64,000 bases of DNA from Candidatus Rokuibacteriota bacterium (GTDB lineage: Bacteria > Methylomirabilota > Methylomirabilia > Rokubacteriales > CSP1-6), in contig VBPC01000173.1 in NCBI GenBank assembly GCA_005887895.1, positions 3,006 through 67,005 on the forward strand, written 5' to 3'. The translations under genes were made by a program, and so were the position numbers. The notes below the pieces were generated by a model, which worked only from the letters and a program-made list of their open reading frames with translations, ran no database searches and was not told where the DNA came from. This document shows, one piece after another, positions 8,942-54,735 of this stretch (the stretch's first letter is position 1; every line of letters begins with the position of its first letter).

Positions 8942-9820
8942 GTGAGGCTGGCGCATCGCCTGGCCGTGCTGACGGCCGCCGCGACCGGCGTGCTCATCGT
9001 CTTCGGCGGGCTCGTGACGAACACGGGCGCCGCCCTGGCGGTGCCCGACTGGCCGACGACGTTCGGCCACAACATGTTCCTGTTCCCACCCTCGCAGATG
9101 GTGGGCGGCGTGTTCTACGAGCACAGCCACCGCCTGCTCGGCGCCCTCGTGGGCGGACTGACGGTGGGGCTGGCGGCGATCCTCTGGCGGCGCGGCGGCC
9201 GCTGGCGCGCGCTCGCCGTCGCCGCCGCGCTCCTCGTCGTCCTCCAGGGCGTCGTCGGAGGGCTGCGGGTGGTGCTGCAGACGGAGGCGCTCGCCATGAT
9301 CCATGGTCCGCTGGCGCAGGCGTTCTTCGCGCTGACCGTCACCATCGCGCTGCTCACGTCGCCCCGGATGGCCGCGCCGGCGCTCACGGTGGATGCGACC
9401 ACGCGCCGGCTGACGCTGACCGCCGCGGCGACGGTGTATCTACAGATCGTGTTCGGCGCGCTCCTCACTCACGCCGGTTATCTCGGCCTCCACCTGGCCG
9501 GCGCGCTGGCCGTCTTCGTCCTGGTGCCGATCGTCACCGCGCGCCTGCGGCATGGCGGCGACCCGGTGGCCGCGCCGGCGGCCCGCGCCCTCCTGGCTCT
9601 GCTGGGGCTGCAGCTGCTGCTCGGCGTCGGCAGCTATCTGGTGCGCTTCTCGGCGATCTGGATCCCGGGCGGACAGCTCACGATGCTGGCGGCGCCCGTC
9701 GCGCATCGGCTGGCCGCCGGCCTCGTCCTCGCGGCCGTCGTGGTGCTGGCCGTCCGCGTGCTGGCCTCCGCGCGGCCGGCGGTGCTCGACGTTCCCGGCG
9801 TGCTCGGAGTCGTGTCATGA
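8942..9820 (+). CDS. ctaA: Haem A synthase (CtaA/COX15 family, short type-2 form)
   Basis: The GTG start is in frame with the stop at 9820. The protein has eight TM helices, the motifs DWPTTFGHNMF and YEHSHRLLG, and His in downstream helices. Confidence 0.7.
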   Translation: MRLAHRLAVLTAAATGVLIVFGGLVTNTGAALAVPDWPTTFGHNMFLFPPSQMVGGVFYEHSHRLLGALVGGLTVGLAAILWRRGGRWRALAVAAALLVVLQGVVGGLRVVLQTEALAMIHGPLAQAFFALTVTIALLTSPRMAAPALTVDATTRRLTLTAAATVYLQIVFGALLTHAGYLGLHLAGALAVFVLVPIVTARLRHGGDPVAAPAARALLALLGLQLLLGVGSYLVRFSAIWIPGGQLTMLAAPVAHRLAAGLVLAAVVVLAVRVLASARPAVLDVPGVLGVVS

Positions 9821-9938
9821 AGCCCCGCGCGTCTGGAACAGGCCACCTGCGGTTCACGCCGGCCGCGCGGACCCCGCTACGATTGAAGCCCCGCGCGCCT
9901 GGAACAGGCCACCTGCGGTTCACGCCGGCCGCGCGGAC
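9818..9938 (+). repeat. Tandem direct duplication (2 x 55 nt with one mismatch, 11-nt spacer) that exactly fills the ctaA-ctaB intergenic region
   Basis: Copy 1 at 9818-9872 is tgaagccccgcgcgTctggaacaggccacctgcggttcacgccggccgcgcggac. The spacer is cccgctacgat. Copy 2 at 9884-9938 is identical except for a single T-to-C change. Copy 1 starts at the ctaA stop codon and copy 2 ends at the ctaB ATG. Each unit contains the inverted pair ccgcgcg / cgcgcgg. Confidence 0.85.
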
Positions 9939-10841
9939 ATGACGCCGCGGGGCGAGGTCGTCGTGGCGGCGCTTGCGCGCGAGCGCGGACGCGTGGCCGG
10001 CGACCTCCTGTCGCTGACGAAGCCGCGCGTCGTCCTGATGGTGCTCGTGACGACGGTGGTCGGCTACTACGTCGGTCTGGCCGGCGCGCCCGACTACGCG
10101 CGCCTGGCGGCGCTCCTGCTCGGCACGATGCTGGCGGCCGGCGGCACGCTGGCGCTGAACCAGTACTGGGAGCGTGACGTCGACGCCCTCATGGAGCGCA
10201 CGCGCACGCGCCCGCTGCCCGAGGGACGGCTGGCCCCGCTGGAGGCGCTGCTGTTCGGCGGGGGGCTCACGGCGGCGGGGCTCGGCGTGCTGGCCCTCGG
10301 CGTCGGCTGGCTGGCCGCGCTGGTGGTGGCGGCCACGTTCGTGCTCTACATCTTCGCGTACACGCCGCTCAAGGTGCGGACGCCGTTCTGCACGCTGGTC
10401 GGCGCCGTGCCGGGTGCGCTGCCGCCGGTGGCCGGCTGGGCCGCCGCGCGCGACGACGTCGGGGTGGGCGCCTGGGTGCTGTTCGGCATCCTGTTCCTCT
10501 GGCAACTGCCCCACACGCTGGCCATCGGGCGTCTCTACCGTGACGACTATGCCCGGGCCGGCGTGCGGCTGCTGCCGGTGATCGACGCCCAGGGGCGGGC
10601 CACCGAGCGACAGATCCTCAGCGGCTGCCTGGGGCTGCTGGCGGTGAGCCTGCTGCCCACGCTGATCGGCCTGGCCGGCGGCGTCTACTTCGCGGGCGCC
10701 CTCGTCCTCGGCGCCGGGTTCGTCACGCTCGGCGCCCAGCAGGCGCTGGCGCCGTCGGCGTCGCGCGTGCGACGCGTGCTGCTGGCCTCGCTGCTCTACC
10801 TGCCGGCGCTGCTGGCGCTGCTGGCCTTCGACAAAGCATGA
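9939..10841 (+). CDS. ctaB: Protohaem IX farnesyltransferase (haem O synthase)
   Basis: The protein is 301 aa and belongs to the UbiA family, with motifs LTKPRVV, NQYWERDVDALMERTRTRPLP and LFLWQLPHTLAIG. Confidence 0.85.
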   Translation: MTPRGEVVVAALARERGRVAGDLLSLTKPRVVLMVLVTTVVGYYVGLAGAPDYARLAALLLGTMLAAGGTLALNQYWERDVDALMERTRTRPLPEGRLAPLEALLFGGGLTAAGLGVLALGVGWLAALVVAATFVLYIFAYTPLKVRTPFCTLVGAVPGALPPVAGWAAARDDVGVGAWVLFGILFLWQLPHTLAIGRLYRDDYARAGVRLLPVIDAQGRATERQILSGCLGLLAVSLLPTLIGLAGGVYFAGALVLGAGFVTLGAQQALAPSASRVRRVLLASLLYLPALLALLAFDKA

Positions 10842-10966
10842 GCATGAGCGCCGTCATGACCGACCCCGGCGACCTCGGCCAGCGCAACCGGCTCGTCCGC
10901 CGCATCCTGCTCGGCATCGTCGCCGTGCTGATCGTCGCCTCGTTCATGGTGGGGATTCGCTGGTGA
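10838..10966 (+). CDS. Small single-TM protein (42 aa) wedged between ctaB and cox3
   Basis: Its ATG overlaps the ctaB stop (ATGA). The sequence is MSMSAVMTDPGDLGQRNRLVRRILLGIVAVLIVASFMVGIRW. It is in the same frame as, and directly upstream of, the next gene, and is below the ORF-track size cut-off. Its coding status is unproven. Confidence 0.3.
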   Translation: MSMSAVMTDPGDLGQRNRLVRRILLGIVAVLIVASFMVGIRW

Positions 10967-11038
10967 CCGCCGCCGACGCCGCCCACCGGCGGCGGCGACG
11001 ACGACCGCAACGGCTCGTGGGGCCGGCCGCTCGACAAC

Positions 11039-11575
11039 GTGCGGCTGGCGATGATGTTCCTGATCGCGGGCGAGGTGATGTTCTTCGCCGCCCTCGTCTC
11101 CGGCTTCTTCGTCCTGCGGCTGGCGGCGCCGCTGTGGCCGCCGCCGCTGCAGCCGCGGCTGCCCGTGTTCGTGACCGGGCTCAACACGCTCGTCTTGCTC
11201 GGCTCGAGCATCGCCATGCTCGGCGCGACGCGCGCCGTGGGGCGCGGGGAGCGGTCGCGGGCGCTGCGCCGCCTGGCCCTCACGGCCGCGCTCGGCATCC
11301 TGTTCCTCGCCGTGCAGGGCTACGAATGGACGCGGCTGATCGAGTACGGCCTCACCACCTCGTCCGGCGCCTACGGCGGCACGTTCTACACACTGATCGG
11401 CGCGCACGCCGCCCACGTGCTGGGCGCGCTGATCTGGCTGGCCGTCACCCTGACGCTGGCCGCCCGCGGGCGTTTCCTCGACGGCCGCACCGCCGTGCTG
11501 CGAGCGTGCGCGATCTACTGGCACTTCGTCGTGGCCCTGTGGCCGGTTCTCTACGTGACGGTCTACCTGATATGA
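11039..11575 (+). CDS. Cytochrome c oxidase subunit III family protein (short, copy 1)
   Basis: A GTG start gives a 178-aa protein with motifs YEWTRLIEYGL, GTFYTLIGAHAAHVLGALIWL and YWHFVVALWPVLY. Confidence 0.7.
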   Translation: MRLAMMFLIAGEVMFFAALVSGFFVLRLAAPLWPPPLQPRLPVFVTGLNTLVLLGSSIAMLGATRAVGRGERSRALRRLALTAALGILFLAVQGYEWTRLIEYGLTTSSGAYGGTFYTLIGAHAAHVLGALIWLAVTLTLAARGRFLDGRTAVLRACAIYWHFVVALWPVLYVTVYLI

Positions 11576-11787: not shown

Positions 11788-12398
11788 GTGCTGCAACCCC
11801 GCACGCAGCGGTGGAGCGCGCCGAGACCCCGCTCACGCCGGAGAGCTGGGGCAAGCTCGGGATGTGGATCTTCCTGGCCGGCGACGCCGTCGGCTTCGGC
11901 ACGCTGCTGGCGTCCTACGGCGGCATGCGCGCGACCAGCGCCGACTGGCCGAATCCCTACGCGGTGCTCGGCATCAACCTGACCGCCGCCATGACGTTCC
12001 TGCTGATCTGCTCGAGCGTCACGATGGTGAAGGCGCTCGAGTGGCTGGGCCGCGGCGACCGAGCCAAGGCCAAGATGTTCCTGTTCTTCACCGCGCTGGG
12101 CGGGGCCATCTTCGTCGGCTGCCAGGCCTATGAATGGACGCACCTGATCGAGCGTGGCCTGCACATCAACGGCAATCCCTGGGGGGCCGCGCTGTTCGGC
12201 ACCTCGTTCTTCATCGTCACCGGCTTCCACGGCCTCCACGTGACGGGCGGCGTCATCTACCTGCTGGCGATGATCGGCGTCGTGTCCCGCCGGCCCGATC
12301 CGGCGGCCAGCTACAACGCGGTCGAGATCGCCGGCCTCTACTGGCACTTCGTCGACCTCGTGTGGATCATGGTGTTCACCTTCATGTACCTCCTCTAA
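11784..12398 (+). CDS. Cytochrome c oxidase subunit III (copy 2)
   Basis: The protein is 205 aa with motifs AYEWTHLIERGL, FFIVTGFHGLHVTGGVIYL and YWHFVDLVWIMVF. Confidence 0.85.
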   Translation: MSAATPHAAVERAETPLTPESWGKLGMWIFLAGDAVGFGTLLASYGGMRATSADWPNPYAVLGINLTAAMTFLLICSSVTMVKALEWLGRGDRAKAKMFLFFTALGGAIFVGCQAYEWTHLIERGLHINGNPWGAALFGTSFFIVTGFHGLHVTGGVIYLLAMIGVVSRRPDPAASYNAVEIAGLYWHFVDLVWIMVFTFMYLL

Positions 12399-12411
12399 GG
12401 AGGCGAGATCG

Positions 12412-12750
12412 ATGGCAGCCGAGCACAAGCATCCCAACTACATGGCGATCTTCTACCTGCTGGCGGTGCTGACGGTCGGCGAGATCGCCGTCGTGTTCCT
12501 GCCGCACTACATCGGGATCAGCAAGTTCGCCGTCGGCGTGTTCCTGTGCGCCTTCGCGATCGTCAAGGCGGCGCTGGTCGCCATGTACTTCATGCACCTG
12601 AAGTTCGAGGCGCGCACGCTGGGCCTCATCGCCCTCACGCCGCTGACGATCGCCACGCTGCTGGTGTTCGTCATCCTTCCCGACGCTTCGTTCGTGGATC
12701 ACAAGACGGCGAACGTCAAGCCGGCGGCCGAAGAGCCGGCCAAGCACTGA
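12412..12750 (+). CDS. Prokaryotic cytochrome c oxidase subunit IV (caa3-type CoxD/CtaF family)
   Basis: The sequence HKHPNYMAIFYLLAVLTVGEIAVVFLP...AIVKAALVAMYFMHLKFE is the signature of the small three-helix subunit IV family. Confidence 0.75.
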   Translation: MAAEHKHPNYMAIFYLLAVLTVGEIAVVFLPHYIGISKFAVGVFLCAFAIVKAALVAMYFMHLKFEARTLGLIALTPLTIATLLVFVILPDASFVDHKTANVKPAAEEPAKH

Positions 12751-12783
12751 CAGCGGCCCCGCGGGTGGGGGAGCGCGTGGGGC

Positions 12784-13149
12784 ATGGCGGAGGACGGGCC
12801 GCTGGCGCGGGTGGTGCGCGCCGAGGGGCGGACGCTGCGGCTGCGCTGTCCGCGCTGCGGCCGCGCCCCGCTCTTCCGCGGCTGGTTCACCATGAACGTC
12901 GTCTGCGCGGTCTGCTCTCTCCGCTTCGAGCGGGCCCCCGGCTACTGGATCGGTGCCATCTACGTGAACTACGGCGTCACGGTGACGATCGCGGTGGCGG
13001 GCTACTTCCTGCTGTGGGCGCTGGCCGGCGTCGAGACCGGACAGCTCGCGCTGTGGGTGCCGTTCGTGATCGCGTTTCCGCTGTGGTTCTTCCGCTACAG
13101 CCGGGCGCTCTGGCTCGGCCTCGAGTATGCGCTGAACCCGGACCCGTAG
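12784..13149 (+). CDS. DUF983-family membrane protein (zinc-ribbon plus TM), a family typically found in oxidase operons
   Basis: The signature is CPRCGRAPLFRGWFTMNVVCAVCSLRF followed by two TM helices. Confidence 0.7.
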   Translation: MAEDGPLARVVRAEGRTLRLRCPRCGRAPLFRGWFTMNVVCAVCSLRFERAPGYWIGAIYVNYGVTVTIAVAGYFLLWALAGVETGQLALWVPFVIAFPLWFFRYSRALWLGLEYALNPDP

Positions 13150-13176
13150 GGTCCGCGACCTGAGCAAGGAGTCGGT

Positions 13177-13926
13177 GTGCTGAGAATCGTGGCGATGGTC
13201 GTGCTCGCGATGGCGCTGGCGACGCCGGCGCCGGCCTACGAGGTCGTCACCGTGCCCGACGGCGGCACCCTGGCCGGCGTGGTGAGGTTCGCCGGCCCAC
13301 CGCCGAAGCTCGACCCGCTGCCGGTGAACAAGAACCGCGACGTGTGCGGCGACGAGAAGGCCACGGAGGCGCTCATCGTCGGGCCCGACCACGGCGTGCG
13401 TGGCAGCGTCATCCTCGTGGAGGGCGTCACCCGCGGCAAGGCGCCGGCCGGGGAGGTCCTGCTCGACAACCACAAGTGCCTGTTCGTCTCCCACGTCAGC
13501 GCGACGACGACGGGCGAGCGCGCGCGGGTGAAGAACTCCGACGGCATCCTGCACAACACGCACGGCTTCCTGGCCCGGACGACGGTCTTCAACCTCGCGC
13601 TGCCGAACCGCGACCAGATGATCGACATCACCCGGCGGCTCGGCAAGCCGGGGGTGGTGCGCGTCGTGTGCGACGCGCACACCCACATGTTCGGCTGGAT
13701 CGTCGTGCACGACAGCCCCTACTTCGCCGTGAGCGACGACCACGGCGCGTTCCGCATCGAGGGCATCCCGCCCGGCAGCTACAAGGTCACGCTCTGGCAC
13801 GAGGGCTACCGGCCCCGCGGCCTCGACAAGGACGGGCGCGCGCTGTACGACGAGCCCCGCACCATCACCCGCGACGTCACGATCGCGCCGACGGCGACGG
13901 CGACGGTCGACTTCGAGCTCAAATAG
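13177..13926 (+). CDS. Periplasmic cupredoxin-like (type-1 copper) protein, paralogue of 5790-6479
   Basis: A signal peptide is followed by VKNSDGILHNTHGF and VVCDAHTHMFGW (C-x2-H-x2-M). The C-terminal beta-sandwich (FRIEGIPPGSYKVTLWHE...VDFELK) has the same architecture and conserved blocks as the upstream paralogue. Confidence 0.6.
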   Translation: MLRIVAMVVLAMALATPAPAYEVVTVPDGGTLAGVVRFAGPPPKLDPLPVNKNRDVCGDEKATEALIVGPDHGVRGSVILVEGVTRGKAPAGEVLLDNHKCLFVSHVSATTTGERARVKNSDGILHNTHGFLARTTVFNLALPNRDQMIDITRRLGKPGVVRVVCDAHTHMFGWIVVHDSPYFAVSDDHGAFRIEGIPPGSYKVTLWHEGYRPRGLDKDGRALYDEPRTITRDVTIAPTATATVDFELK

Positions 13927-13935
13927 GAGAGGCGC

Positions 13936-15846
13936 ATGTACAAGCACATCTACGTTCCGGTCGACAACTCGGACTACTCGAACCGGGCCATCGACCTGGC
14001 CGTCGAGCTGGGCCGTGCATTCGGCGCACGGCTCACGGGTTGTCACGTGTACGCCGCCCGGCTGCACGACTACCGGTTCAAGCAGATGGAGTACACGCTG
14101 CCGGAGGAGTACAAGGACGAGACGGAGCTCGAGCGCCAGCGCAAGATCCACGACTCGCTGATCGCCATGGGCCTGCAGCTGATCTCGGAGTCCTACCTCG
14201 ATGTCCTGAAGGCCCGGGCGGAGGCGGCCGGCCTCGCCTTCACGCCGAAGATGATGGACGGCAAGCACTACAAGGCGCTCATCGAGGACTGCGCGAGCGC
14301 CGACTACGACCTGGTCATCATGGGCGCCCTCGGCATGGGCGCCGTCAAGGACAGCCAGCTCGGCTCCGTGACCGAGCGCTTCGTCCGTCGAGTCACGCGC
14401 GACACGCTGGTCGTGCGCAATGCCGACGCCCTCCGCGACGCCCAGGGCGCGATCGTCGTCGGCCTCGACGGCTCCCCGCAGTCGTTCCACGGGCTCAAGC
14501 TCGGCCTGGCGCTGTCGCGGGCGCTCGGCCGGCCGGTGCGGGCCATCGCCGTGTACGATCCGTACCTCCATTACGCCATGTTCAACGGCATCGTGGGCGT
14601 CCTGAACGAGAAGGCGTCGAAGATCTTCCGGTTCAAGGAGCAGGAGCAGCTGCACGAGGAGATCATCGATACCGGATTGGCCAAGATCTACCAGTCGCAC
14701 CTCGAGATCGCTCGCAAGCTGGCCGCCGAGGACGGCGTCGACCTCGACATCACGCTGCTCGACGGCAAGTGCTTCGAGAAGATTCTGACCTTCGCCCGCA
14801 AGGAGCAGCCGTGGTTGCTCGTGCTGGGCCGGGTCGGCGTGCACTCCGAGGAGAACGAGACCGATCTCGGCTCCAACACCGACAATCTCCTGCGGCTGGC
14901 GCCCTGCAACGTCCTGCTCACCGGCGGGCGGTTCTATCCGCCGCTGGACGTCAAGGCCGAGGAGATCATCTCGTGGACCGAGGAGGCCGAGGCGCGCATG
15001 GAGCGGGTGCCGCCCCAGGTCAAGGGCGTGGCCCGCACCGCCCTGCTGCGCTACGCGATCGAGCAGGGCCATACGGTCATCACCAACAAGGTCATCGACG
15101 AGGCGATGGCCATCTTCATGCCGACCCGCATGGCGGAGACGATGCAGATCATGGCGGAGGACCTCGCGGTGGCCCAGCTGCGCAAGGACGGCCAGGCGGC
15201 GACGGCGATCTGCTCGGTGTGCGGCTACACCGTCAAGGGACCGAGCGCGGTGGTGACGTGCCCGGTGTGCTCGGCGGCCCCCGACAAGTTCCAGACGATC
15301 ACCCGGGAGGTCGTGGAGACGATCGCGGCCCAGGAAGGCGGCGTCGCCGAGGAAGAGTCGATGCCCGGCGTCGTCACCAAGTGGTCGGCCGACGCCCGCG
15401 ACGCCCTGCGCGAGGTGACCGACGGCTACCTGCGCCGGCGCGCCAAGGCCCGCATCGAGAAGTACGCGCGCTCGAAGAAGATCCCGGTCATCACCTGCCA
15501 GCTCGCGCTGCCGATGATCGAGGAGACGGTCGGCCGCGACAAGCTCGGGGCCGGCTGGGACACGCTCCTCGCCAAGACCCGGTTCGAGCCGGCCGCGGCG
15601 CCGGCGGCGGCGGCCGTGGCGCCGGCGACGAGCGCGTTCACGTGGACCGAGGACGCCGTCGCCCGGCTCAACCGGGTGCCGGCGGGGTTCATGCGGGACA
15701 TGACGCGCGAGGAAATCGAGCGCGTCGCTGCGACGAAGAACGCCACGCTCATCGATCTCGCCCTGTGCGAAGAGGGTATCGGGCACGCCCGCGAGACGAT
15801 GAACGAGGTCATCGCGGGATACGTCTCGAACAAGAAGCCGCGCTGA
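13936..15846 (+). CDS. Multi-domain protein: tandem universal-stress-protein (UspA) domains, a PCP_red domain, a CxxC...CxxC zinc ribbon, and a second PCP_red domain
   Basis: The two USP modules begin YKHIYVPVDNSDYSNRAIDLAVEL and AIVVGLDGSPQSFHGLKLGLALS. The zinc ribbon is CSVCGYTVKGPSAVVTCPVC. The two PCP_red domains (WTEEAEARMERVPPQVKGVARTALLRYAIEQGHTVIT and WTEDAVARLNRVPAGFMRDMTREEIERVAATKNATLI) match the BchB C-terminal domain motif W.peAe..L..iP.FvR......E.fA...G...it. Confidence 0.65.
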   Translation: MYKHIYVPVDNSDYSNRAIDLAVELGRAFGARLTGCHVYAARLHDYRFKQMEYTLPEEYKDETELERQRKIHDSLIAMGLQLISESYLDVLKARAEAAGLAFTPKMMDGKHYKALIEDCASADYDLVIMGALGMGAVKDSQLGSVTERFVRRVTRDTLVVRNADALRDAQGAIVVGLDGSPQSFHGLKLGLALSRALGRPVRAIAVYDPYLHYAMFNGIVGVLNEKASKIFRFKEQEQLHEEIIDTGLAKIYQSHLEIARKLAAEDGVDLDITLLDGKCFEKILTFARKEQPWLLVLGRVGVHSEENETDLGSNTDNLLRLAPCNVLLTGGRFYPPLDVKAEEIISWTEEAEARMERVPPQVKGVARTALLRYAIEQGHTVITNKVIDEAMAIFMPTRMAETMQIMAEDLAVAQLRKDGQAATAICSVCGYTVKGPSAVVTCPVCSAAPDKFQTITREVVETIAAQEGGVAEEESMPGVVTKWSADARDALREVTDGYLRRRAKARIEKYARSKKIPVITCQLALPMIEETVGRDKLGAGWDTLLAKTRFEPAAAPAAAAVAPATSAFTWTEDAVARLNRVPAGFMRDMTREEIERVAATKNATLIDLALCEEGIGHARETMNEVIAGYVSNKKPR

Positions 15847-15854
15847 GCGATGAC

Positions 15855-16002
15855 GGTTCGTGGGCGGCGGCGGGGGCGGGGTCCGGCGACCACGAGGTAG
15901 GCGGCGATGGTTGGGATGCGTGATTCCCTCGTGCCGGGTGGCTCCGTAAGCGGTTGCGGGAAACGGGTCGGCGGACCCCGCCCCCGCCGCCGCCCACGAA
16001 CC
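15855..16002. repeat. 36-nt inverted repeat (35/36 match) with a 76-nt spacer, forming a large potential stem-loop between the USP/PCP_red gene and the radical-SAM gene
   Basis: Arm 1 at 15855-15890 is ggttcgtgggcggcggcgggggcggggtccggcgac. Arm 2 at 15967-16002 is gtcggcggaccccgcccccgccgccgcccacgaacc, the reverse complement with one G/C mismatch. The loop contains a nested cacgagg / cctcgtg inverted pair. Confidence 0.85.
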
Positions 16003-16037
16003 TCCGCGCTCGCACATCTCTCCTTCGGAAGGATCCC

Positions 16038-22401: not shown

Positions 22402-22491
22402 GGGACTCGACCGCCGGTTGGAGATGGGGGCTCCGGGATGGCCCCCAACCCCCGAGGACGGCTCGGAGCGCCGCGGGGCGCTCCTCGAGCG

Positions 22492-22725
22492 TCAGCGCCG
22501 GCGGGCCCCCTTCCGCTTGCCGCCCGCGCGCGCCTTCGCCCGCTTCTTGCCACCCCGGCTCTTCGTCCGGCTCTTGCCGCGGGCCTTGGCCGAGCCAGTG
22601 CGCTTGGCCTTCGCCTTCCGCTTCGGCTTGGCCGTGGCGCGACGCTTCGCCGGCGACGGCGTGGAGTCCATACCCATCGGGTCGGACGGCATCTGCGAGC
22701 TCATCCCTTCCATCGGTCGTTCCAT
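22492..22725 (-). CDS. Lys/Arg/Ala-rich basic protein (histone H1-like / Hc1-like low-complexity tail)
   Basis: The C-terminal two-thirds reads PAKRRATAKPKRKAKAKRTGSAKARGKSRTKSRGGKKRAKARAGGKRKGARRR. The start is uncertain (MERPMEG at 22725, or later Met codons). Confidence 0.4.
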   Translation of the reverse strand: MERPMEGMSSQMPSDPMGMDSTPSPAKRRATAKPKRKAKAKRTGSAKARGKSRTKSRGGKKRAKARAGGKRKGARRR

Positions 22726-30939: not shown

Positions 30940-31092
30940 GCGCCACGGCTTCGCCGGGGGCGCGCCGAACGTGGGGGATTTGGGGGCCATGTCGGGGCCC
31001 CGCACGACGTCAACCATTCCAGAGAAGCGCCACGGCTCCGCCGGGGCGCTGCGAAGGTTTGGGGGCTTGGGGGCCATGTCGGGGCCCCCATC
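30940..31092. repeat. Two tandem REP-like direct repeats (about 68 nt, roughly 88% identical, 87-nt period) in the intergenic region
   Basis: Copy A is agacgcgccacggcttcgccgggggcgcgccgaacgtgggggatttgggggccatgtcggggcccc. Copy B is agaagcgccacggctccgccggggcgctgcgaaggtttgggggcttgggggccatgtcggggcccc. Each contains the hairpin ggggcc-atgtcg-ggcccc. Confidence 0.75.
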
Positions 31093-31095
31093 TAA

Positions 31096-32268
31096 TCAAT
31101 CGAGAACCACCAGCCCGCGATGCGAGCGATTGAGGCCGTGAGCGCCGGTGCGCGTGACGAGCACCGTATCCTTCACGTTGAGACCGACCTCGCCGGCCAC
31201 GTAGTATGGCGTCTCCACGCGCAGCACCATCCCCATCTCGAGCGCGCCGCCGTCGGGCGCCAGGCGCGGCGGCTCGGCGGGCTCGAGCCCGATGCCGTAG
31301 CCGACGTGGTGACGGGCGAAGCGGGGGAGCCCGGCCTTGCGGGTGGCCGTGATGGCGGCCTCGAACACGGCGGCGCCGGTGACGCCGGGTCGCACGGTGT
31401 CCAGCGCGGCCTCGAGCCCCGCGTGGATCGCGTCGAACGTCGCCTGCTGCGACGCGGACGGCTCGCCCATCACGGCCATGCGGGCCACGTCCGAGTGATA
31501 GCCCTTCACGACGCAGCCGAGGTCGAAGCGCACGAGCTCGCCGGCGCGCAGCGGGCGGTCGGTGGGCCACGGCGCCGGCACCGCCGAGCCGGCGCCGAAC
31601 GCGACGATCGTGCAGTACGGCGTCGCGCCCTGGGCGATGACCTCGCGCTCGAACGCCTCGGCGGCCTCGCGCTCGGTGACCCCCGGGCTCAGCAGCGCGA
31701 GCACCACGTTGATCGCCTCCTCGGCGACGTGGAGCGCGCGCTGCAGGCAGTCGATCTCGTACGGTCCCTTGACGAGCCGCGCCGCGGCCAGCGTCGCCGA
31801 CCCGGGCACGACGCTCACGCCTTTCAGTCGCTCGCGCACGGCCGCCGCCGTCGCGGCCGGCAGCCCGGCGTCGTCGAGACCGACACGGCCGCCGGCGACG
31901 CCCAGCAAGCCCAGGGCGGCGGCCAGCGCGTCGGCGCCGCTCGCAATCGGCTCGGCGACGAGCCGGCTCAGCCGCCGCGCCGCCTCGCTCCGCGCGCCGG
32001 CCGCGTCGAGATGGAATCGTCCGTGGCAGAGGACGTGGCCGACCTCGACGTTGCCCTCGACGACGGCGGCGGCGTCGAGCGTCGGCACGACCAGCGCGGT
32101 GCTGGCGCGGGTCACGACCGCGTAATACTCCTGCGCCGGATAGACGCTCCGCGCGAGGCTGCGAAAGCCGGTGAGGTAGGCGACGTTGGCCGGCGACGCC
32201 GCCACCAGCGCGTCGAGCCCCTCGCGCTCCAGGGCTTCGGCGAGCCGCTCGGCTTGGTGCGGGTACAT
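31096..32268 (-). CDS. M24-family metallopeptidase (Xaa-Pro aminopeptidase / creatinase-like)
   Basis: The N-terminal creatinase-like domain is followed by the pita-bread catalytic domain, with blocks VRFDLGCVVKGYHSDVARM and HHVGYGIGLEPAEPP. Its start overlaps the SDR stop (TGATG). Confidence 0.75.
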   Translation of the reverse strand: MYPHQAERLAEALEREGLDALVAASPANVAYLTGFRSLARSVYPAQEYYAVVTRASTALVVPTLDAAAVVEGNVEVGHVLCHGRFHLDAAGARSEAARRLSRLVAEPIASGADALAAALGLLGVAGGRVGLDDAGLPAATAAAVRERLKGVSVVPGSATLAAARLVKGPYEIDCLQRALHVAEEAINVVLALLSPGVTEREAAEAFEREVIAQGATPYCTIVAFGAGSAVPAPWPTDRPLRAGELVRFDLGCVVKGYHSDVARMAVMGEPSASQQATFDAIHAGLEAALDTVRPGVTGAAVFEAAITATRKAGLPRFARHHVGYGIGLEPAEPPRLAPDGGALEMGMVLRVETPYYVAGEVGLNVKDTVLVTRTGAHGLNRSHRGLVVLD

Positions 32269-33884: not shown

Positions 33885-34877
33885 CTACGCCGGACTCGCC
33901 GTCACCGGCGCCACCCGTCGCCCGACGAGGCGGCGGGCGCCGCCGGCGATCCCGGCCGGCAGGAAGATGATGAAGACGATCAGCAGGACGCCGTAGATCG
34001 TCTCGGCCATGCCGAGGAACTTCAGGCCGAAGGCGATGCGCAAGCCCTCGGACAGGGCCGTGGTCAGCGCGGTGCCGATCAGCGGACCGAGCAGCGAGTA
34101 CATTCCGCCCAGCACGACGGCGAAGACGATCTTCAGCGAGACGCCGATGCCCGACAGCGTGTCGGGGTTCACGTAGGTGATGTACTGCGCGTAGAGCGCG
34201 CCGCCGAAGGCGGTGAGCGCGGCCGACGCGACGGTGATGCCGAGCTTGAAGCGGGTGACGTGGATGCCGACGGAGGCGGCGGCCGTCTCGTCCTCGCCGA
34301 TCGCCTCCAGCGCCGCGCGCGCCATCGAGCGGTCCACGCGGTGCCAGATCCAGAGGCCGGCCAGCCAGACGAGCAGCGCCGCGTAGTAGAAGACGCGCTT
34401 GTCGGCGAACTGGACCGCCAGCAGGGAGTCGCCGCCGGCGGTCTTCAGGGTGAGGCCGAGCGAGCCATCGGTGCAGTCGCGCTCGGCGATGATGAGCAGC
34501 CGCACGACCTCGCCGACGGCGAGGGTCACGAGGCCGAAGTAGTGACCGACCACGCGAAACCGGAAGCAGGGATAGCCGAGCACCAGCGCCACCAGCACGG
34601 CCAGCCCCACGCCGGCCGGCCCGCCCAGCCACGGCGTGAGCCGGAAGTGGTTCCAGAGCAGCACGGTGGTGTAGGCGCCGACGCCGAGAAACGCGCCGTG
34701 GCCGAGGGAGACGAGGCCGAAGCGGCCCATCAGCGACCACGCGCTGCCGATGAAGGCCCAGATGAAGATCTGGATCGCGACGTGCAGGACGTACTGGCGC
34801 ATGCCGCCCATGGGCACGAACGGCGCGCCGACGAGCGCGGCGATCGCCAGCGCGGCGGCCAGGCGGGGGCCGCTCAT
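33885..34877 (-). CDS. livM: Branched-chain amino acid ABC transporter permease (LivM-type)
   Basis: The protein has 8-9 TM helices and the block GHGAFLGVGAYTTVLL. Its start overlaps the livH stop (ATGA). Confidence 0.8.
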   Translation of the reverse strand: MSGPRLAAALAIAALVGAPFVPMGGMRQYVLHVAIQIFIWAFIGSAWSLMGRFGLVSLGHGAFLGVGAYTTVLLWNHFRLTPWLGGPAGVGLAVLVALVLGYPCFRFRVVGHYFGLVTLAVGEVVRLLIIAERDCTDGSLGLTLKTAGGDSLLAVQFADKRVFYYAALLVWLAGLWIWHRVDRSMARAALEAIGEDETAAASVGIHVTRFKLGITVASAALTAFGGALYAQYITYVNPDTLSGIGVSLKIVFAVVLGGMYSLLGPLIGTALTTALSEGLRIAFGLKFLGMAETIYGVLLIVFIIFLPAGIAGGARRLVGRRVAPVTASPA

Positions 34878-42617: not shown

Positions 42618-43583
42618 GTGAATTCCGGGACGCGATCGGTCTTTGTCGTGACGGGTGGGGCGGGGTTCATCGGGTCGCATGTCGTCGAGCGGCTGTTGCG
42701 TGATCAGCCGGGGGCGACGGTACGGGTGCTCGACGATTTCTCGACCGGTAGCGAGGCGAACCTGCCGTTTGCGGCCGCCGCCGGGAACCGGCTGGAGATC
42801 GTGCGCGGCGACATCCGGGATCTCGACACGGTGGAGCGGGTGGCGACGGGGGCGTCGGTGATCTTTCATCAGGCGGCGCTGCGGTCGGTGCCGCGGTCGG
42901 TGGACGATCCGCTCGGCACGAACGCGCGGAACGTGACGGGCACGCTGCACGTGCTCGAGGCGGCGCGGCGCCAGCGCGTGCGGCGCGTGGTGTACGCGTC
43001 GTCGTCGTCGGTGTACGGCGACCGGCCGGAGCTGCCCAAGCGCGAGGACCAGCCGCCGGCGCCGATCTCGCCCTACGCGGTCTCCAAGGCGGCCGGCGAG
43101 CAATACGCCCGGGTGTGGACGCAGCTCTACGGCGTCGAGACGGTGGGCCTCCGCTACTTCAACGTCTTCGGACCGCGGCAGGACCCCGCCTCCGAGTACG
43201 CCGCCGTCATCCCGCGCTTCATCCTGTGGGCGCTGCACGGCACGCCGCTCGAGGTGCACGGCGACGGCGAGCAGTCGCGCGACTTCACCTACATCGACAA
43301 CGTGGTCGACGCCAACCTGGCCGCGGCGAGCGCGCCGGCCGCCGCCGGCGAGGCCTTCAACGTCGGCTGCGGCAATCGCGTGAGCCTGCTGGAGATCATC
43401 GGGCGGCTGGAGAAGATTCTCGGCCATCCCGTGGCACGGCGGCACACGCCGGCCCGGGCGGGCGACGTGCCGCACACCCAGGCCGACGTGAGCAAGGCCG
43501 AGAAGCTGATGGGCTACGTGCCGCAGGTCGACTTCGACGAAGGCTTCCGGCGGACGGTCGACTACTTCAGGAGGAGCGCATGA
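42618..43583 (+). CDS. NAD-dependent epimerase/dehydratase (UDP-GlcNAc/Glc 4-epimerase-like)
   Basis: The cofactor motif is VFVVTGGAGFIGSHVV, and the catalytic pair is SSSSVYG...YAVSKAAGE (YxxxK). A GTG at 42618 is the inferred start; the ORF-track GTG at 42570 would add an atypical 16-aa extension. Confidence 0.8.
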   Translation: MNSGTRSVFVVTGGAGFIGSHVVERLLRDQPGATVRVLDDFSTGSEANLPFAAAAGNRLEIVRGDIRDLDTVERVATGASVIFHQAALRSVPRSVDDPLGTNARNVTGTLHVLEAARRQRVRRVVYASSSSVYGDRPELPKREDQPPAPISPYAVSKAAGEQYARVWTQLYGVETVGLRYFNVFGPRQDPASEYAAVIPRFILWALHGTPLEVHGDGEQSRDFTYIDNVVDANLAAASAPAAAGEAFNVGCGNRVSLLEIIGRLEKILGHPVARRHTPARAGDVPHTQADVSKAEKLMGYVPQVDFDEGFRRTVDYFRRSA

Positions 43584-44986
43584 CGCGCCGAGCGCTGCTC
43601 GCGATGCTGGGCGCGGCGCTGGTGGCGGTGGCCGGCGGCGCCGGGGCCGACGCCCAGGGTCCGCCGAACCTCGTCGTCCAGGTGTCGACCGAGCCGCCCG
43701 GCCTCGACCTCACCGCGACGCCGGCCTCGGCCACCGCCGGGGTCGTTCTCTACAACATCCAGGAGTGCCTGCTGAAGGTCGATCGACACGGCAAGCTCGT
43801 GCCGTGGCTGGCCGAGCGGTGGCACACCGCGGACAACCGCAACTACACGTTCTTCCTCCGGCGCGGTGTGCGCTTCCACAACGGCCGCGAGCTCAAGGCC
43901 GCCGACGTGAAGTACGTGTTCGAGCGGGCGCTGAACCCGGAGACCAAGCATCCCTACGCGAAGGACTACGAGGCGATCGGCGACATCATCGTCAAGGACG
44001 ACTACACCGTCACCTTCACGCTCAAGAGCGTCAACGCCAACTTCCTGCAGAACATCGCGCGTCAGGGCTCGGTGATCTATCCGCGCGACAAGGACTACTA
44101 CGTCAAGGGGCTGCCGAAGCTCGATCGCGTCACCTTCCGCTTCATCACCGATCCCAACGCGATCCAGGCCGCCCTGAAGGCCGGCGACATCGACGCCTCG
44201 CTGTTCGGGCTCGGGGCCGAGCACGTGCAGGACTTGCAGAAGGACCCGCGGTTCACGGTCATCGTGGGCGACACCACCAACGACGTCATCCTCGCCATGA
44301 ACAACTCGCGCAAGCCCTACCGCGACGTGCGCGTGCGGCGGGCGATGACGTACGCGATCAACAAGCCGGACGTCCTCAAGGGCGCCATGTTCGGCATGGG
44401 CAAGATCCTCGGCACCAACGTCGATCCGCTCAATCCCTACTACGTCGACCTCTCGAACGCGATGCCCTACGATCCCGCCCGGGCCAGGAAGCTGCTGGCC
44501 GAGGCCGGCTACCCGAACGGGTTCGAATCCGTCCTCCGGGTCTCGCCCCAGTACCAGTACACGGTGCGTTCGGGTGAGGTGATCGTCGACAACCTGCGCA
44601 AGGTCGGCGTCAATGTGAAGATCGAGCAGATCGAGTGGGCGCAGTGGCTCGCCCGCGTCTTCCGCGAGGCCGACTACGACCTCACGATCATCGGACACGC
44701 CGAGGCGTGGGACATCAAGAACTACGCGAACCCGAAGTACTACTTCCGCTACGACAGCCCGAAGTTCCAGGAGCTCTTCACGAAGTCCGAGGAGACCGTG
44801 GACGACGCCAGGCGCCGCGACCTCTACGTGCAGATGCAGAAGCTGCTGGTGGAGGAGGCGCCGGCGGTGTGGCTCTACATGCACCCCCGCCTGGCGGTGG
44901 CCAAGAAGGGCGTGCAGGGCCTCTGGAAGGACCTGCCCGTTCCGGCCGCCGACCTCTCCGAGGTCTCGTGGACGCCGGCCAAGTAA
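43580..44986 (+). CDS. ABC transporter substrate-binding protein, family 5 (peptide/nickel)
   Basis: A signal peptide (MTRRALLAMLGAALVAVAGG) is followed by the SBP_bac_5 fold. Its ATG overlaps the upstream stop. Confidence 0.8.
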   Translation: MTRRALLAMLGAALVAVAGGAGADAQGPPNLVVQVSTEPPGLDLTATPASATAGVVLYNIQECLLKVDRHGKLVPWLAERWHTADNRNYTFFLRRGVRFHNGRELKAADVKYVFERALNPETKHPYAKDYEAIGDIIVKDDYTVTFTLKSVNANFLQNIARQGSVIYPRDKDYYVKGLPKLDRVTFRFITDPNAIQAALKAGDIDASLFGLGAEHVQDLQKDPRFTVIVGDTTNDVILAMNNSRKPYRDVRVRRAMTYAINKPDVLKGAMFGMGKILGTNVDPLNPYYVDLSNAMPYDPARARKLLAEAGYPNGFESVLRVSPQYQYTVRSGEVIVDNLRKVGVNVKIEQIEWAQWLARVFREADYDLTIIGHAEAWDIKNYANPKYYFRYDSPKFQELFTKSEETVDDARRRDLYVQMQKLLVEEAPAVWLYMHPRLAVAKKGVQGLWKDLPVPAADLSEVSWTPAK

Positions 44987-49798: not shown

Positions 49799-51642
49799 GC
49801 CGCTTCGCCGACGCGCGCCGCCTCGCGCGGCTGCTGCGCCGCTACGTGGCGCCGTACTGGCCGGCGCTGGGAGTGCTGCTGCTGACCAGCGCGCTGGCCA
49901 CCGGGCTGGCCGCGCTGTTGCCCGTCGTCATGGCGCCGATCCTCGACCTGGCGCTGGGCGGCGCCCGGCCGACGCCGGCCGGCGGTGTGGGGCTGGGTGG
50001 CCTGAGCCTGACCAATCTCGGCGGCGCGGTGCTCGGGTGGCTCGGCGCCTCCGCGGTCGACGATCGCTTCCGCGCCATCGCGCTGCTCTGCCTGGCCTAC
50101 GTCGCCGTGGGCCTCGTCAAGGGCTGGCTCGACTTCGGCAACTACCTGCTGGCGTTGTGGCTGCGCGTGCGCGCGGCCAGCGCGCTGCAGGCCGATCTCT
50201 TCCGCCATCTGCTGACGATGTCGATGAGCTTCTTCACGCGTCACCGCTCGGCCGAGCTCGTCTCGCGGCTGTCCACCGACACGCGCTCCGCCACCGCGGG
50301 CCTGGAGACGATCGTCTGCACGGTCTTCAGCGCGCCACTGCTCATCGCGTTCTACGCCTACCTGCTGGCGCGGACGAATCCACGCCTGGTCGGAGCCGCC
50401 CTCGCCGCCGCGGTGCTGCACTATGCGGTCACGCGGGGCATCCGCGGGCCCGTGCGTCGGTTCGCGACCGACCAGTTCTCGGTGCTGGCCGAGGTGGCCT
50501 CGCGCTTCCAGGAGGCGCTCGTCAACGTCCGCACGGTGAAGTCGTTCGCGGCGGAGACGTTCGAGCTCCGGCGGCTGGGCGCCACGCTGCGCGAGGTGCT
50601 GCGGGTCAACGTGAAGTTCGGCGTGTACAAGCACATCGAGGAGCCGGCGCGCGCCGTCGTCAACTACGTCGTGGAGGCCGGGCTGATCCTCCTGGCGGCG
50701 TGGGAGCTCCTGGCCGGACGTCTCACCGCGCCGGCGTTCTTCCTCTTCCTTTATGTGGGCCGCGCCGTCATGGTCCAGATCGGCCTCCTGGCCGGCGCCT
50801 ACACGGCCATGCAGGGCATCCTGGCGGCCACCAGCCGGGTGGACGAGCTGTTCGCCGAGCGCCCGGCCGTGCCCGACGGCGCGGAGACGATCGACGCGTT
50901 CCGCGACCGCATCGCGCTGCGCGACGTCACCTTCCGCTACGGCGACGGCGAGCCGGTGCTCTGGCGGGTGACCCTCGACGTCCGCAAGGGCGAGGTGGTG
51001 GCGGTGGTGGGGCCGAGCGGCGTCGGCAAGTCGACGCTGGTCGACCTCGTGCTGCGCCTGTACGATCCCACCGCCGGCGTGATCACCATCGACGGGCGCG
51101 ACCTCCGGTCGCTGCGGCAGCACGCCTATCGCCGACTCTTCGGCGTCGTCGCCCAGGAGCCGCTGCTGTTCAACACGACGATCCGCGACAACATCGCCTA
51201 CGGTCGCGACGACGTGGCCGAGGCCGAGATCGTGCGCGCCGCCCGCGTGGCCAACGCGCACGACTTCGTCGTGGAGTTCCCGGACGGCTACGACACGGTG
51301 GTGGGCGATCGCGGCATCCGCCTGTCCGGCGGCCAGCGCCAGCGGATCGCCATCGCGCGGGCGGTGGTCGGCAGCCCGCCCATCCTCATCCTCGACGAGG
51401 CGACGAGCTCGCTCGACAGCGAGTCGGAGCGCCTGGTGCGCCAGGCGATCGAGCAGGTCGTGCAGGGGGCCACGTCGATCGTCATCGCGCACCGGCTGTC
51501 GACGGTGCTGCACGCCGACACGATCGTGGTCCTCAACCGGGGCGGGGTGGAGGCGGTCGGGCGCCACGCGCAACTGCTGGAGACGAGCGAGACCTACGGC
51601 AGCCTGTACCGGCTGCAGTTCAGCGAGGCCGGCGCGGTATGA
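49795..51642 (+). CDS. ABC exporter, fused permease-ATPase (MsbA/lipid-A-flippase-like)
   Basis: A six-TM domain is followed by Walker A GPSGVGKST, the signature LSGGQRQRIAIARA and Walker B ILILDEATS. The GTG start overlaps the upstream stop. Confidence 0.8.
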   Translation: MSRFADARRLARLLRRYVAPYWPALGVLLLTSALATGLAALLPVVMAPILDLALGGARPTPAGGVGLGGLSLTNLGGAVLGWLGASAVDDRFRAIALLCLAYVAVGLVKGWLDFGNYLLALWLRVRAASALQADLFRHLLTMSMSFFTRHRSAELVSRLSTDTRSATAGLETIVCTVFSAPLLIAFYAYLLARTNPRLVGAALAAAVLHYAVTRGIRGPVRRFATDQFSVLAEVASRFQEALVNVRTVKSFAAETFELRRLGATLREVLRVNVKFGVYKHIEEPARAVVNYVVEAGLILLAAWELLAGRLTAPAFFLFLYVGRAVMVQIGLLAGAYTAMQGILAATSRVDELFAERPAVPDGAETIDAFRDRIALRDVTFRYGDGEPVLWRVTLDVRKGEVVAVVGPSGVGKSTLVDLVLRLYDPTAGVITIDGRDLRSLRQHAYRRLFGVVAQEPLLFNTTIRDNIAYGRDDVAEAEIVRAARVANAHDFVVEFPDGYDTVVGDRGIRLSGGQRQRIAIARAVVGSPPILILDEATSSLDSESERLVRQAIEQVVQGATSIVIAHRLSTVLHADTIVVLNRGGVEAVGRHAQLLETSETYGSLYRLQFSEAGAV

Positions 51643-52661
51643 GCAGGCCGGCGCGACAGGGGAGGGCGACCGTGGGCGGTGTCCAGGGCGTCGTGAACTG
51701 GGCGGAGGCGTCGGTGCTGGTGACCGGCGGCACCGGCTCGTTCGGCAACAAGTTCGTGGAGATCATGCTCGAGAAATACCACCCGCGCCGCCTGGTGGTG
51801 TTCAGCCGCGACGAGCTCAAGCAGTCGGAGATGATGGGGCGCTTCAAGGATCCCAGCCTGCGCTTCTTCGTGGGCGACGTGCGCGACAAGGAGCGGCTGG
51901 AGCGCGCGATGCACGGCGTCGACGTCGTGATCCACGCCGCCGCCCTCAAGCAGATCCCCTCCTGCGAGTACAACCCCTTCGAGGCGATCCAGACCAACGT
52001 CATCGGGGTCAAGAACGTCATCGACGCGGCGATCGACCAGGGCGTGCCGCGGGTGATGGCCATCAGCACCGACAAGGCCGTCAACCCGATCAACCTCTAC
52101 GGGGCCACCAAGCTCTGCGCCGAGAAGCTGGTCGTGCAGGGCAACGCCTACGGCCACCCGCGTTCCACGATCTTCAGCGTGGTGCGCTACGGCAACGTCA
52201 TCGGCAGCCGGGGCAGCGTCATCCCGCTCTTCGCCGAGCAGAAGCGCACCGGCACGGTGACGGTGACCGACCCCGACATGACGCGCTTCTGGATCCGGCT
52301 CGAGGACGGCGTCGCCTTCGCGATCCGGTGCATCGAGCGGATGCGGGGCGGCGAGATCTTCGTGCCCAAGATCCCCAGCATGCGCATCCTCGACCTCGTG
52401 CAGGCGGTGGCGCCCGGCTGCCGGGTGGACGTCATCGGCATCCGGCCCGGCGAGAAGCTGCACGAGATCCTGATCTCCGAGGACGAGAGCCGCCAGGCCG
52501 TCGAGTTCGACGACATGTTCGTGGTGGAGCCCATCTATCCCTCGTGGCCGTTTCCCGCCTGGGAAGGCGGGAAGCGGCCCGGCGCCGGCTTCCGCTACTC
52601 GAGCGACACGAATCAGTGGTGGCTCAGCGGTGCCGAGATGCAGGACCTGGCCCGTGGCTGA
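51639..52661 (+). CDS. pseB: UDP-N-acetylglucosamine 4,6-dehydratase (inverting), PseB/FlaA1 family
   Basis: The blocks are VLVTGGTGSFGNKFV, YGATKLCAEK (YxxxK) and the PseB-typical HAAALKQIPSCEYNPFEAIQTNVIGVKNVIDAAI. Confidence 0.85.
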   Translation: MSRPARQGRATVGGVQGVVNWAEASVLVTGGTGSFGNKFVEIMLEKYHPRRLVVFSRDELKQSEMMGRFKDPSLRFFVGDVRDKERLERAMHGVDVVIHAAALKQIPSCEYNPFEAIQTNVIGVKNVIDAAIDQGVPRVMAISTDKAVNPINLYGATKLCAEKLVVQGNAYGHPRSTIFSVVRYGNVIGSRGSVIPLFAEQKRTGTVTVTDPDMTRFWIRLEDGVAFAIRCIERMRGGEIFVPKIPSMRILDLVQAVAPGCRVDVIGIRPGEKLHEILISEDESRQAVEFDDMFVVEPIYPSWPFPAWEGGKRPGAGFRYSSDTNQWWLSGAEMQDLARG

Positions 52662-53743
52662 TCCGCTGGCCCTGCACGGCGGCCGGCCCGTCCGGAGCGC
52701 GTTGCTGCCGTACGGCCGCCACCTCGTCGACGCCGCCGACGTGCAGGCCGTGGTGGCGACGCTGCGCGACGGGCTCATCACGACCGGCCCCGCGGTGGCG
52801 GACTTCGAGCGCGCGTTCGCCGCCGCGGTGGGGGCGCGCCACGCGGTGGCCGTCAGCTCGGGGACCGCGGCGCTGCACACGGCCGTGTTCGCCGCCGGCC
52901 TCGGGCCCGGCGACGAAGCCGTCACCACGCCGCTGACGTTCGTGGCGACGTCAAACGCCGTCCTCTACCAGGGCGCCCGGCCGGTCTTCGCCGACGTGCG
53001 CCCGGACACCCTCACGCTCGACCCGGCCGCCGCCGCCGCCGCGCTCACGCCGCGCACGCGCGCGCTGATGCCCGTGCACTTCGCCGGCCAGGCGTGCGAC
53101 CTGGACGCGTGGGAGCGCCTGGCCCGCGCCCGCGGTCTCGTGCTGATCCAGGACGCCGCCCACGCGCTCGGCGCCGAGGTGGGCGGCCGTCGCGTCGGCG
53201 GCGGGGAGGGCCTCACCGTCTTCAGTCTCCATCCGGTCAAGCACATCACGACCGGCGAGGGCGGCGTGGTGACGACCGACGACGCCGGCCTGGCCGAGCG
53301 GATGCAGCGCTTTCGCAACCACGGCCTGGCGACGGATGCCGGCACGCGCGACGCCCACGGGCGCCTCTGGTCGGAGATGGTGGACCTCGGCTACAACTAC
53401 CGGCAAGGACGTGCCCGGCTTCACGCTGCCCCAGGTCGTGCCCGACGCCCGGCACGCCTGGCATATCTTTCCGGTGCTGGTGGAGTCGCAGCGGCTGTCC
53501 GCCGATCGCGCCACGGTCTACGCCGCGCTGCGCGCCGAGAACATCGGCGTCACGCTGCACTACGTGCCGGCCTACTGGCATCCCTACTACGCCGCGCGCG
53601 GCTACACGCGAGGGCTCTGTCCCGTCGCCGAGGACGGCGCCGAGCGGCTGCTCACGCTGCCGATCTTTCCGGGCATGACCGACCAGGACGTGGCCGACGT
53701 CATCCACGCGGTGCGGAAGGTCGCGGAGCACTACCAGCGATGA
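52654..53743 (+). pseudogene. pseC: DegT/DnrJ/EryC1-family aminotransferase (PseC-like) disrupted by an internal deletion of about 30 codons plus a frameshift
   Basis: Frame 1 encodes the N-terminal two-thirds up to ...RLWSEMVDLGYNYR (cgg at about 53401) and then runs into out-of-frame Arg/Ala-rich sequence. The conserved continuation (MTDIQAALGLSQL...RRR.IA..Y...L) is missing. Frame +2 resumes immediately with KDVPGFTLPQVVPDARHAWHIFPVLVESQR...HYVPAYWHPYY...VIHAVRKVAEHYQR and ends at the stop at 53743. Confidence 0.7.
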
Positions 53744-54735
53744 CCGCGCTGCGCGTGGCGTTCCTCACCGATGCCGGCGGCGACGCCGGGCTGGGCCACT
53801 TCAAGCGCTGCGTTGCCCTCGCGCGGGCGCTGGGGGCGCGTGGCGCGCGCGTCGACGTCCTCGTGAGCGGGGCGCTGGAGGCCGGGCTGGCGGCCGTCGC
53901 GGCCGATGTCACCCCTCGGCCGCTGGCCTGGTGGGGCGCGCCGGGACGCGTGCTCGACGCGCTGGTCGGCCGCGGCGTCGACGTCGTCGTCGTCGACTCG
54001 TACCACGCCGATGCCGCGCTGCTGACCGCGCTGCGCCGCGCGGCGCTCGTCGTCGCCATCGACGATCTCGCCGATCGCGCGGTGCCCGCCGACGTCGTGA
54101 TCAACGGCGCCTGGCACGCCGAGCGGCTCGCCTATCGCGTGCCCGCCGAGGCGGTGACGCTGCTCGGGGCGCGCTACGCGCTGCTCGACCCCGCCTTCGC
54201 GGCGACGCCGTCACCGCGCGCGCGCGACGGCGTCGCGCGCGTGCTCGTGACGCTGGGTGGCGCCACGCCGGCCGCCCAGACGGCCGCGGCGACGGCGGCC
54301 GTACGCTCGGCGCTGCCCGACGCGACGGTCGACGTGGTCGGGGGTCTCGTGCCGGGGGCGTCGGCGCCGGTGCACGGCGTGACGCTCCACGGGGCGGTGC
54401 CGAGCCTGCGCCCCCTGCTCACCGGCGCCGATCTCGCCGTGACCGCAGCCGGCATGACGCTCTACGAGTGCCTGGCGGCGGCCACACCGACCGTCGCCGT
54501 CTGCCTGGCCGACAACCAGCGTCCGAACATCGAGCACCTCGGCGCCGCCGGCCTGGTCGTGCCGGCCGACTTCGCGACGCTGACCGCGACGGTCGCCCGC
54601 GTGGCCGCGGATCGCTCGCTGCGCGGCCGCCTGGCCGCCGACGGCCGGCACGCGATCGACGGTCGCGGGGCCGGGCGTGTCGCCGACGAGATCGTACGGC
54701 TCGCCGCCACGCGCACTACCGCCAGGAGCAGCTGA
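53740..54735 (+). CDS. pseG: PseG-like UDP-sugar hydrolase (GT28 C-terminal-domain fold)
   Basis: The blocks are RVAFLTDAGGDAGLGHFKRCVALARAL and the C-terminal AVTAAGMTLYECLAAATPTVAV. The ATG overlaps the pseC stop. Confidence 0.65.
   Translation: MTALRVAFLTDAGGDAGLGHFKRCVALARALGARGARVDVLVSGALEAGLAAVAADVTPRPLAWWGAPGRVLDALVGRGVDVVVVDSYHADAALLTALRRAALVVAIDDLADRAVPADVVINGAWHAERLAYRVPAEAVTLLGARYALLDPAFAATPSPRARDGVARVLVTLGGATPAAQTAAATAAVRSALPDATVDVVGGLVPGASAPVHGVTLHGAVPSLRPLLTGADLAVTAAGMTLYECLAAATPTVAVCLADNQRPNIEHLGAAGLVVPADFATLTATVARVAADRSLRGRLAADGRHAIDGRGAGRVADEIVRLAATRTTARSS

Follow-up and report, generated by a model that had tools for sequence, protein, structure and literature searches.

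Local assembly and scaffolding errors have been described in short-read MAG scaffolds (Anantharaman et al., 2016, PMC5079060; Chen et al., 2020, PMC7111523). In errors of the IDBA-UD type, a short wrong region lies where two contigs meet, and truncated, fused or frameshifted gene calls enter public databases. The stretch of DNA considered here (64,000 nt, the window) resembles these cases in both respects, and its lesions likewise recur along the scaffold at the break points of other assemblies. The joins in the window differ from the described errors in their appearance: they carry no Ns, nothing is duplicated or garbled, and 65-101 nt are simply gone. Genuine deletion or frameshift pseudogenes of bacteria, for example those of genome reduction, offer a second comparison. 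Like them, the pseC gene of the window combines an internal deletion with a frame shift in a recognisable gene, and is recorded without a protein accession. In contrast to genuine pseudogenes, the window lesion is common to no relative, lacks a flanking direct repeat and shows no secondary decay. Three further lesions of its size class accompany it, all in conserved genes, and the surrounding DNA matches that of intact relatives at 99.7% identity. Judged from these sequence comparisons, the pseC lesion is very probably an assembly or scaffolding artefact of the source MAG, and not a biological loss of the gene.

The best family match of the affected gene is PseC (UDP-4-amino-4,6-dideoxy-N-acetyl-beta-L-altrosamine transaminase, TIGR03588), and the gene order is like that of pseB-pseC-pseG-...-neuB/pseI clusters, with PseB upstream and PseG-like, NeuB/PseI-like and acetyltransferase proteins downstream. 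The upstream gene, pseB (plus strand, 51639-52661), encodes an inverting UDP-GlcNAc 4,6-dehydratase of 340 aa (TMQ21275.1); it is intact, scores 470.6 bits against TIGR03589 (cut-off 407.75), and its stop overlaps the GTG start of pseC. The pseG-like gene (plus strand, 53740-54735) is also intact, its 331-aa product being TMQ21276.1. The match of this product to TIGR03590 (138 bits) lies under the cut-off of 153.55, as do those of the NeuB/PseI-like proteins (261.6-309.1 bits, under both cut-offs) and of the PseH-like protein (34.2 against 93.1) under theirs. The two parts of the window PseC, when joined, score 342 bits against TIGR03588, short of the curated equivalog cut-off of 423.5, and the intact orthologue reaches 416.6 bits, just under it. 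The window thus departs from the PseC cluster in that the matches of its PseC orthologue, PseG, PseI and PseH all fall below the cut-offs. The gene order fits a pseudaminic-acid-type pathway, and the intact gene is predicted to be a PseC-like DegT aminotransferase; because of the sub-threshold matches, the family scores do not settle or establish the exact sugar product.

The whole pseC gene spans 52654-53743 on the plus strand and falls into two parts. The N-terminal part (52654-53403) consists of 250 codons, ends in ...MVDLGYNYR, and matches positions 4-221 of the PF01041 (DegT_DnrJ_EryC1) profile (278.3 bits, E=1.3e-82). The C-terminal part (53405-53743) consists of 112 codons and a stop in the next frame, with the translation KDVPGFTLPQVVPDARHAWHIFPV...HYQR*, and matches positions 256-360 (71.2 bits, E=1.3e-19). 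Both scores are above the family's gathering cut-off of 19.8 bits, which places the gene in the family. The profile has 360 positions, of which 222-255 (34 positions) are absent from the window pseC; its two parts lie in different frames and form no continuous full-length domain, whereas the near-identical relatives are complete. The join lies at 53404-53405, its placement being ambiguous by 1 nt, and shifts the frame by +1, with base 53404 (C) left spare between the two reading frames. What is missing, by comparison with all relatives, is exactly 101 nt, or 34 codons minus one base. The sequence-only reading had proposed a deletion of about 30 codons with a frameshift straight after the YNYR block, and a C-terminal end read in a shifted frame up to a stop overlapping the pseG ATG. 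Both statements hold, the stop being at 53741-53743 and the ATG at 53740 (ATGA).

Intact relatives of the gene are plentiful. Nearly all of the best 120 homologues are single proteins of 396 aa; the window parts, placed end to end, amount to 362 aa. The closest homologue (P0001) differs from these parts only at residue 27 (A or D), apart from M or V for the start codon, and carries between GYNYR and KDVPGF the segment absent from the window, LTDLQCALGRSQLGKLDRFLARREAIAERYLAAL. Compared with this intact orthologue, the surviving parts thus have a single difference in 362 residues and display no secondary decay. At the DNA level, all nine contigs that span pseC in BLAST comparisons (L001-L006, L041, L042; eight samples) carry 101 extra nt at 53404, and are 99.3-99.8% identical to the window on either side of it. 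They come from three kinds of assembly, namely ENA MEGAHIT k141 contigs, SPIRE scaffolds (CRIT18-1_SAMN089028xx) and JGI assemblies. The segment is also present, and the gene intact, in a contig of another Rokuibacteriota species that is 80-90% identical (L008). Among relatives the missing segment has two SNP sites and three haplotypes.

The pseC lesion is not the only one of its kind. Reference contigs from independent assemblies, 99.3-100% identical to the window, cover positions 1-7088 and 7531-62539, and in the stretch between these two ranges CoxA aligns without gaps to a 584-aa relative. Over the roughly 62 kb compared with these references, the window shows clean deletions at exactly four places (80, 65, 93 and 101 nt); no further indel of at least 20 nt was found against the near-identical contigs or in the CoxA alignment. 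Two lesions in 64 kb, in coxB and pseC, had been noticed from the letters of the window. Both are real features of the sequence, and the count rises to four once the genes for a COX3-like protein and a substrate-binding protein are added.

The coxB lesion (plus strand, 6513-7176) is of the type seen in pseC, as had been claimed: 80 nt are gone at the join 6914|6915 and the frame is shifted, with the N-terminal part at 6513-6914 and the C-terminal part at 6916-7176. Two contigs (L010 and L013) contain the 80 nt, which encode PVNKVVHVNLRSQDVIHSFFVPQFRMK. The frame of the N-terminal part continues without a stop into coxA, and the resulting fusion ORF has 804 aa (TMQ21230.1); the relatives have 584 aa. 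The COX3-like lesion (plus strand, 10838-11575) comprises a 42-aa ORF at 10838-10966 and a frameshifting join at 10966|10967. The 65 nt missing there, 83% G+C, hold codons 2-23 of a gene for 225 aa, the GTG start of which is kept and is now out of frame. The truncated product is 174 aa long (TMQ21233.1), as against 225 aa in relatives, and the missing piece is present in eight contigs (L032-L034, L036-L040), a ninth having an N gap. The fourth lesion, in the gene for an ABC substrate-binding protein (SBP_bac_5; plus strand, 43580-44986), is in frame: 93 nt (31 codons) are missing at the join 44088|44089. The segment is present in two near-identical contigs (L001 and L058, 99.6%) and in 22 more distant metagenome contigs. 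The window protein of 468 aa (TMQ21268.1) forms a singleton cluster, and its orthologue in L001 has 499 aa.

At all four sites, then, independent assemblies of this population lack the lesion. The two lesions seen at the outset, in coxB and pseC, disappear there, every spanning contig being intact. A search for the deletion allele itself gave the same picture. Of 241 million JGI metagenome records, which do include intact near-identical copies (L003-L005), none matches the 30 nt of the pseC junction exactly. When the JGI metagenomes were scanned with the 23 nt to the left of the substrate-binding-protein join, 24 contigs were recovered, their identity ranging from 99.6% to about 76%, and none of the 24 has the deletion. 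No second copy of the deletion allele was thus found among the contigs spanning the four sites or in the two JGI metagenome scans.

The main alternative is a set of real deletions of very recent date, in which 65-101 nt were lost from pseC, coxB, the COX3-like gene and the substrate-binding protein gene to give fresh pseudogenes. Nonulosonic-acid (pseudaminic-acid-like) synthesis and the haem-copper oxidase would then be inactivated. The lesions do stand in the deposited record, clean and without Ns (the N count of the entire window is 0), and for none of the reference contigs is an origin in the MAG's own sample established, which leaves room for a deletion private to one strain. The joins themselves argue otherwise. 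Microhomology at the four joins is 0, 0, 1 and 1 nt, with 1 nt at pseC, and neither direct repeats nor hairpins occur in register with them; the longest word common to the zones of 30 nt on either side is 6-8 nt, and it is out of register. The flanking direct repeat or microhomology that would mark a biological deletion is thus lacking. One lesion, of 93 nt, is in frame, a point in favour of real deletions; the other three shift the frame of conserved genes (lengths of 3n+2), in keeping with the two thirds expected without selection. All four genes are conserved, and the recurrence carries no sign of selection on frame or gene, as expected of an artefact. Four deletions in about 62 kb, at no more than 0.3% SNP divergence from intact relatives, would moreover imply hundreds genome-wide, with core respiratory genes included, and the genes so broken show no further decay. 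The allele also occurs in no other assembly spanning the sites, nor in either JGI scan.

A further line of evidence comes from the places where other assemblies fail. We mapped 87 break events, defined as contig ends, edges of N runs and chimeric switches in other assemblies. Four of them lie within 5 nt of a join, compared with 0.06 expected under random placement (P about 5e-5), and they match two of the four joins, at 10966 and 53404 (P about 1e-3), which is the behaviour expected of an artefact and speaks against real deletions. A MEGAHIT contig (L035) ends exactly at 10966, the left edge of the COX3-like hole; another contig (L030) begins 5 nt inside the missing piece; and a SPIRE scaffold (L031) has an 11-N gap exactly at 10966, beyond which the next 5,929 nt are 100% identical to the window. 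At pseC, a second SPIRE scaffold (L041) contains the 101 nt and then switches, 2-3 nt past the right edge, to unrelated low-GC DNA. No coincidence with 6914 or 44088 was seen among the 87 mapped events. At coxB, the window haplotype has 38 private differences at 6588-6894, is divergent yet coding, and reaches the join; local strain heterogeneity of this kind, seen also in the haplotypes of the missing pseC segment, could explain the assembly breaks, and the G+C content of the 65-nt COX3-like piece is another visible reason for one. Sibling scaffolds of the same population have N runs of 10-310 nt every few kb, and the holes match these scaffold gaps in size class and frequency.

An assembly artefact accounts for these observations in the following way. 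A short-read assembler would have broken at four points, for which strain variation, low coverage or a very high G+C content are the probable reasons. Next, either the scaffolder or automated error correction or gap handling after it would have joined the contig ends directly, with neither Ns nor gap filling. The earlier suggestion of a systematic assembly artefact, made in preference to two fresh pseudogenes, is borne out by the four holes, the intact independent assemblies, the want of microhomology in register, the failure to find the allele in JGI records, and the breaks at two of the four joins; it is strengthened by there being four lesions and not two. Its mechanism needs refinement, in that contigs abutted across a short unassembled gap are the likely source, and not mis-joined reads. 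In the living organism all four products are most probably intact: a PseC-like aminotransferase of 396 aa, CoxB, a COX3-like subunit of 225 aa and a substrate-binding protein of 499 aa.

The history of the source assembly bears on both readings. The samples of the matching re-assemblies (SAMN089028xx) appear to belong to the Angelo meadow soil project, and from the organism name, the accession series and the near-identity to these re-assemblies we infer that the MAG derives from the Angelo meadow study (PMC6784897). According to the genome paper of that project, assembly and scaffolding were done with IDBA-UD, and scaffolding errors were then corrected automatically (PMC6784897). If the MAG does come from that study, the pipeline included a step designed to detect joins that no read covers under stringent mapping. 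False joins ought to have been flagged at that stage; the step either missed them, created them, or met reads that support the joins. Because a correction step directed against unsupported joins may have been run (PMC6784897), the view that the deletions are real retains a small share of the probability, and we regard it as very improbable. Similarly improbable is the reading in which the pseC deletion, perhaps together with the other three, is real, and a soil Rokuibacteriota lineage very recently lost a nonulosonic-acid glycan pathway and a haem-copper oxidase by deletions of about 100 nt that did not depend on microhomology.

Two other explanations have next to no standing. That pseC works as it is, with a programmed +1 frameshift or as an enzyme in two pieces, draws on the open frames and strong family matches of both halves and on the normal overlapping stop and start at the end of the C-terminal part, and is scarcely credible for a gene that lacks 34 family-conserved residues (profile positions 222-255), whose best 120 homologues are nearly all single 396-aa proteins, and alongside which three unrelated genes have holes of the same kind. 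That the holes were made by masking or excision during preparation of the window, and are absent from the public record, was rejected as practically impossible, since the aberrant products have NCBI accessions of their own (TMQ21230.1, TMQ21233.1 and TMQ21268.1) and no accession falls between those of PseB (TMQ21275.1) and the PseG-like protein (TMQ21276.1).

If the holes are indeed artefacts of assembly, their biological significance is nil, a normal PseC-like enzyme and cytochrome oxidase being most likely, and their effects are on databases. Exact protein matches place the window on a 67,377-nt NCBI contig of a Candidatus Rokuibacteriota (Rokubacteria) MAG, the proteins of which are TMQ21226-TMQ21280 (locus tags E6K82_...). 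As a consequence of the holes, the nr database has a wrong 804-aa entry in which a CoxB::CoxA fusion is called cytochrome c oxidase subunit I (TMQ21230.1), an oxidase subunit III without its N-terminus (TMQ21233.1) and a substrate-binding protein with a 31-residue hole (TMQ21268.1); an entry for pseC is missing, the accessions of its two neighbours being consecutive. A 693-aa read-through of pseC and a 135-aa C-terminal ORF were not present in the protein collection searched, which agrees with the lack of a pseC protein among the deposited entries. With a density of about one per 15 kb, such holes could number in the hundreds over the genome as a whole, and other genomes of the same pipeline might be affected in the same way. 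If so widespread, such holes would bias pseudogene counts, calls of pathway completeness and protein-family alignments that draw on these genomes.

A few minor observations concern the window as a whole. A scan against Rfam gave no match in it. A GC3 frame plot, which uses no reference, recovers the frame shifts of pseC and coxB and hints at the one at 10966; it is blind to in-frame holes. Two further candidates from this plot, at 22455-22695 and 30990-32220, are not lesions, both being colinear with reference contigs. A spurious ORF of 701 aa occupies 52630-54735, because the N-terminal part of pseC and the pseG-like gene share one frame, which is free of stops until 54735.

Two frameshifting lesions, those in pseC and coxB, have given rise to long read-through ORFs of 701 aa (window 52630-54735) and 804 aa (window 6513-8927), respectively, because in both cases the gene downstream happens to share its frame with the N-terminal part. 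The 804-aa ORF has been taken up in the NCBI annotation as protein TMQ21230.1. In the N-terminal part of coxB (positions 6588-6894), 38 differences (about 12%) are found in the window alone, one of them an indel of 3 nt (MTMPETDF vs. MQAPPPSDF). This variation is conservative and leaves the sequence coding; the segment is therefore a divergent haplotype, which arose by recombination or else belongs to a related strain and was assembled into this contig.

Two SPIRE scaffolds have irregularities of their own that involve pseC. In L042 (SAMN08902870), a GAG codon of the window is replaced by an in-frame TAG near the position matching window ~53630, with a second change close by in a copy that is intact otherwise. 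The TAG could reflect either a nonsense variant or an assembly error at low coverage. The other scaffold, L041 (scaffold_107618), is chimeric from locus ~1581 onward, where Rokuibacteriota pseC switches abruptly to unrelated low-GC DNA bearing a DAP-epimerase fragment.

On the minus strand, an ATG-started ORF of 1,211 aa (window 12382-16017) runs antisense to five plus-strand genes, called from related contigs as COX3, COX4_pro, DUF983, CarboxypepD_reg and Usp. Its product is absent from the protein collection, and the ORF is a high-GC shadow ORF.

The window also contains two repeats. The first is a 55-nt direct repeat (window 9818-9872 and 9884-9938, with a period of 66 nt) between the COX15/CtaA and UbiA/CtaB genes, and BLAST patterns suggest that its copy number differs in related contigs, such as L032 and L033. 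The second is a G+C-rich inverted repeat with 37-nt arms (window 15855-15891 and 15966-16002) that are 97% complementary and enclose a 74-nt loop. It lies directly past the stop (15846) of a 636-aa Usp-domain gene and ahead of a radical-SAM gene; no match to it was found in Rfam.

A 160-nt stretch of a branched-chain amino-acid permease gene (window 34373-34530) is an assembly break hot-spot: six independent contigs (L020, L021, L022, L026, L028 and L029) all terminate inside it. The window is unbroken across this stretch and is colinear there with four other contigs.
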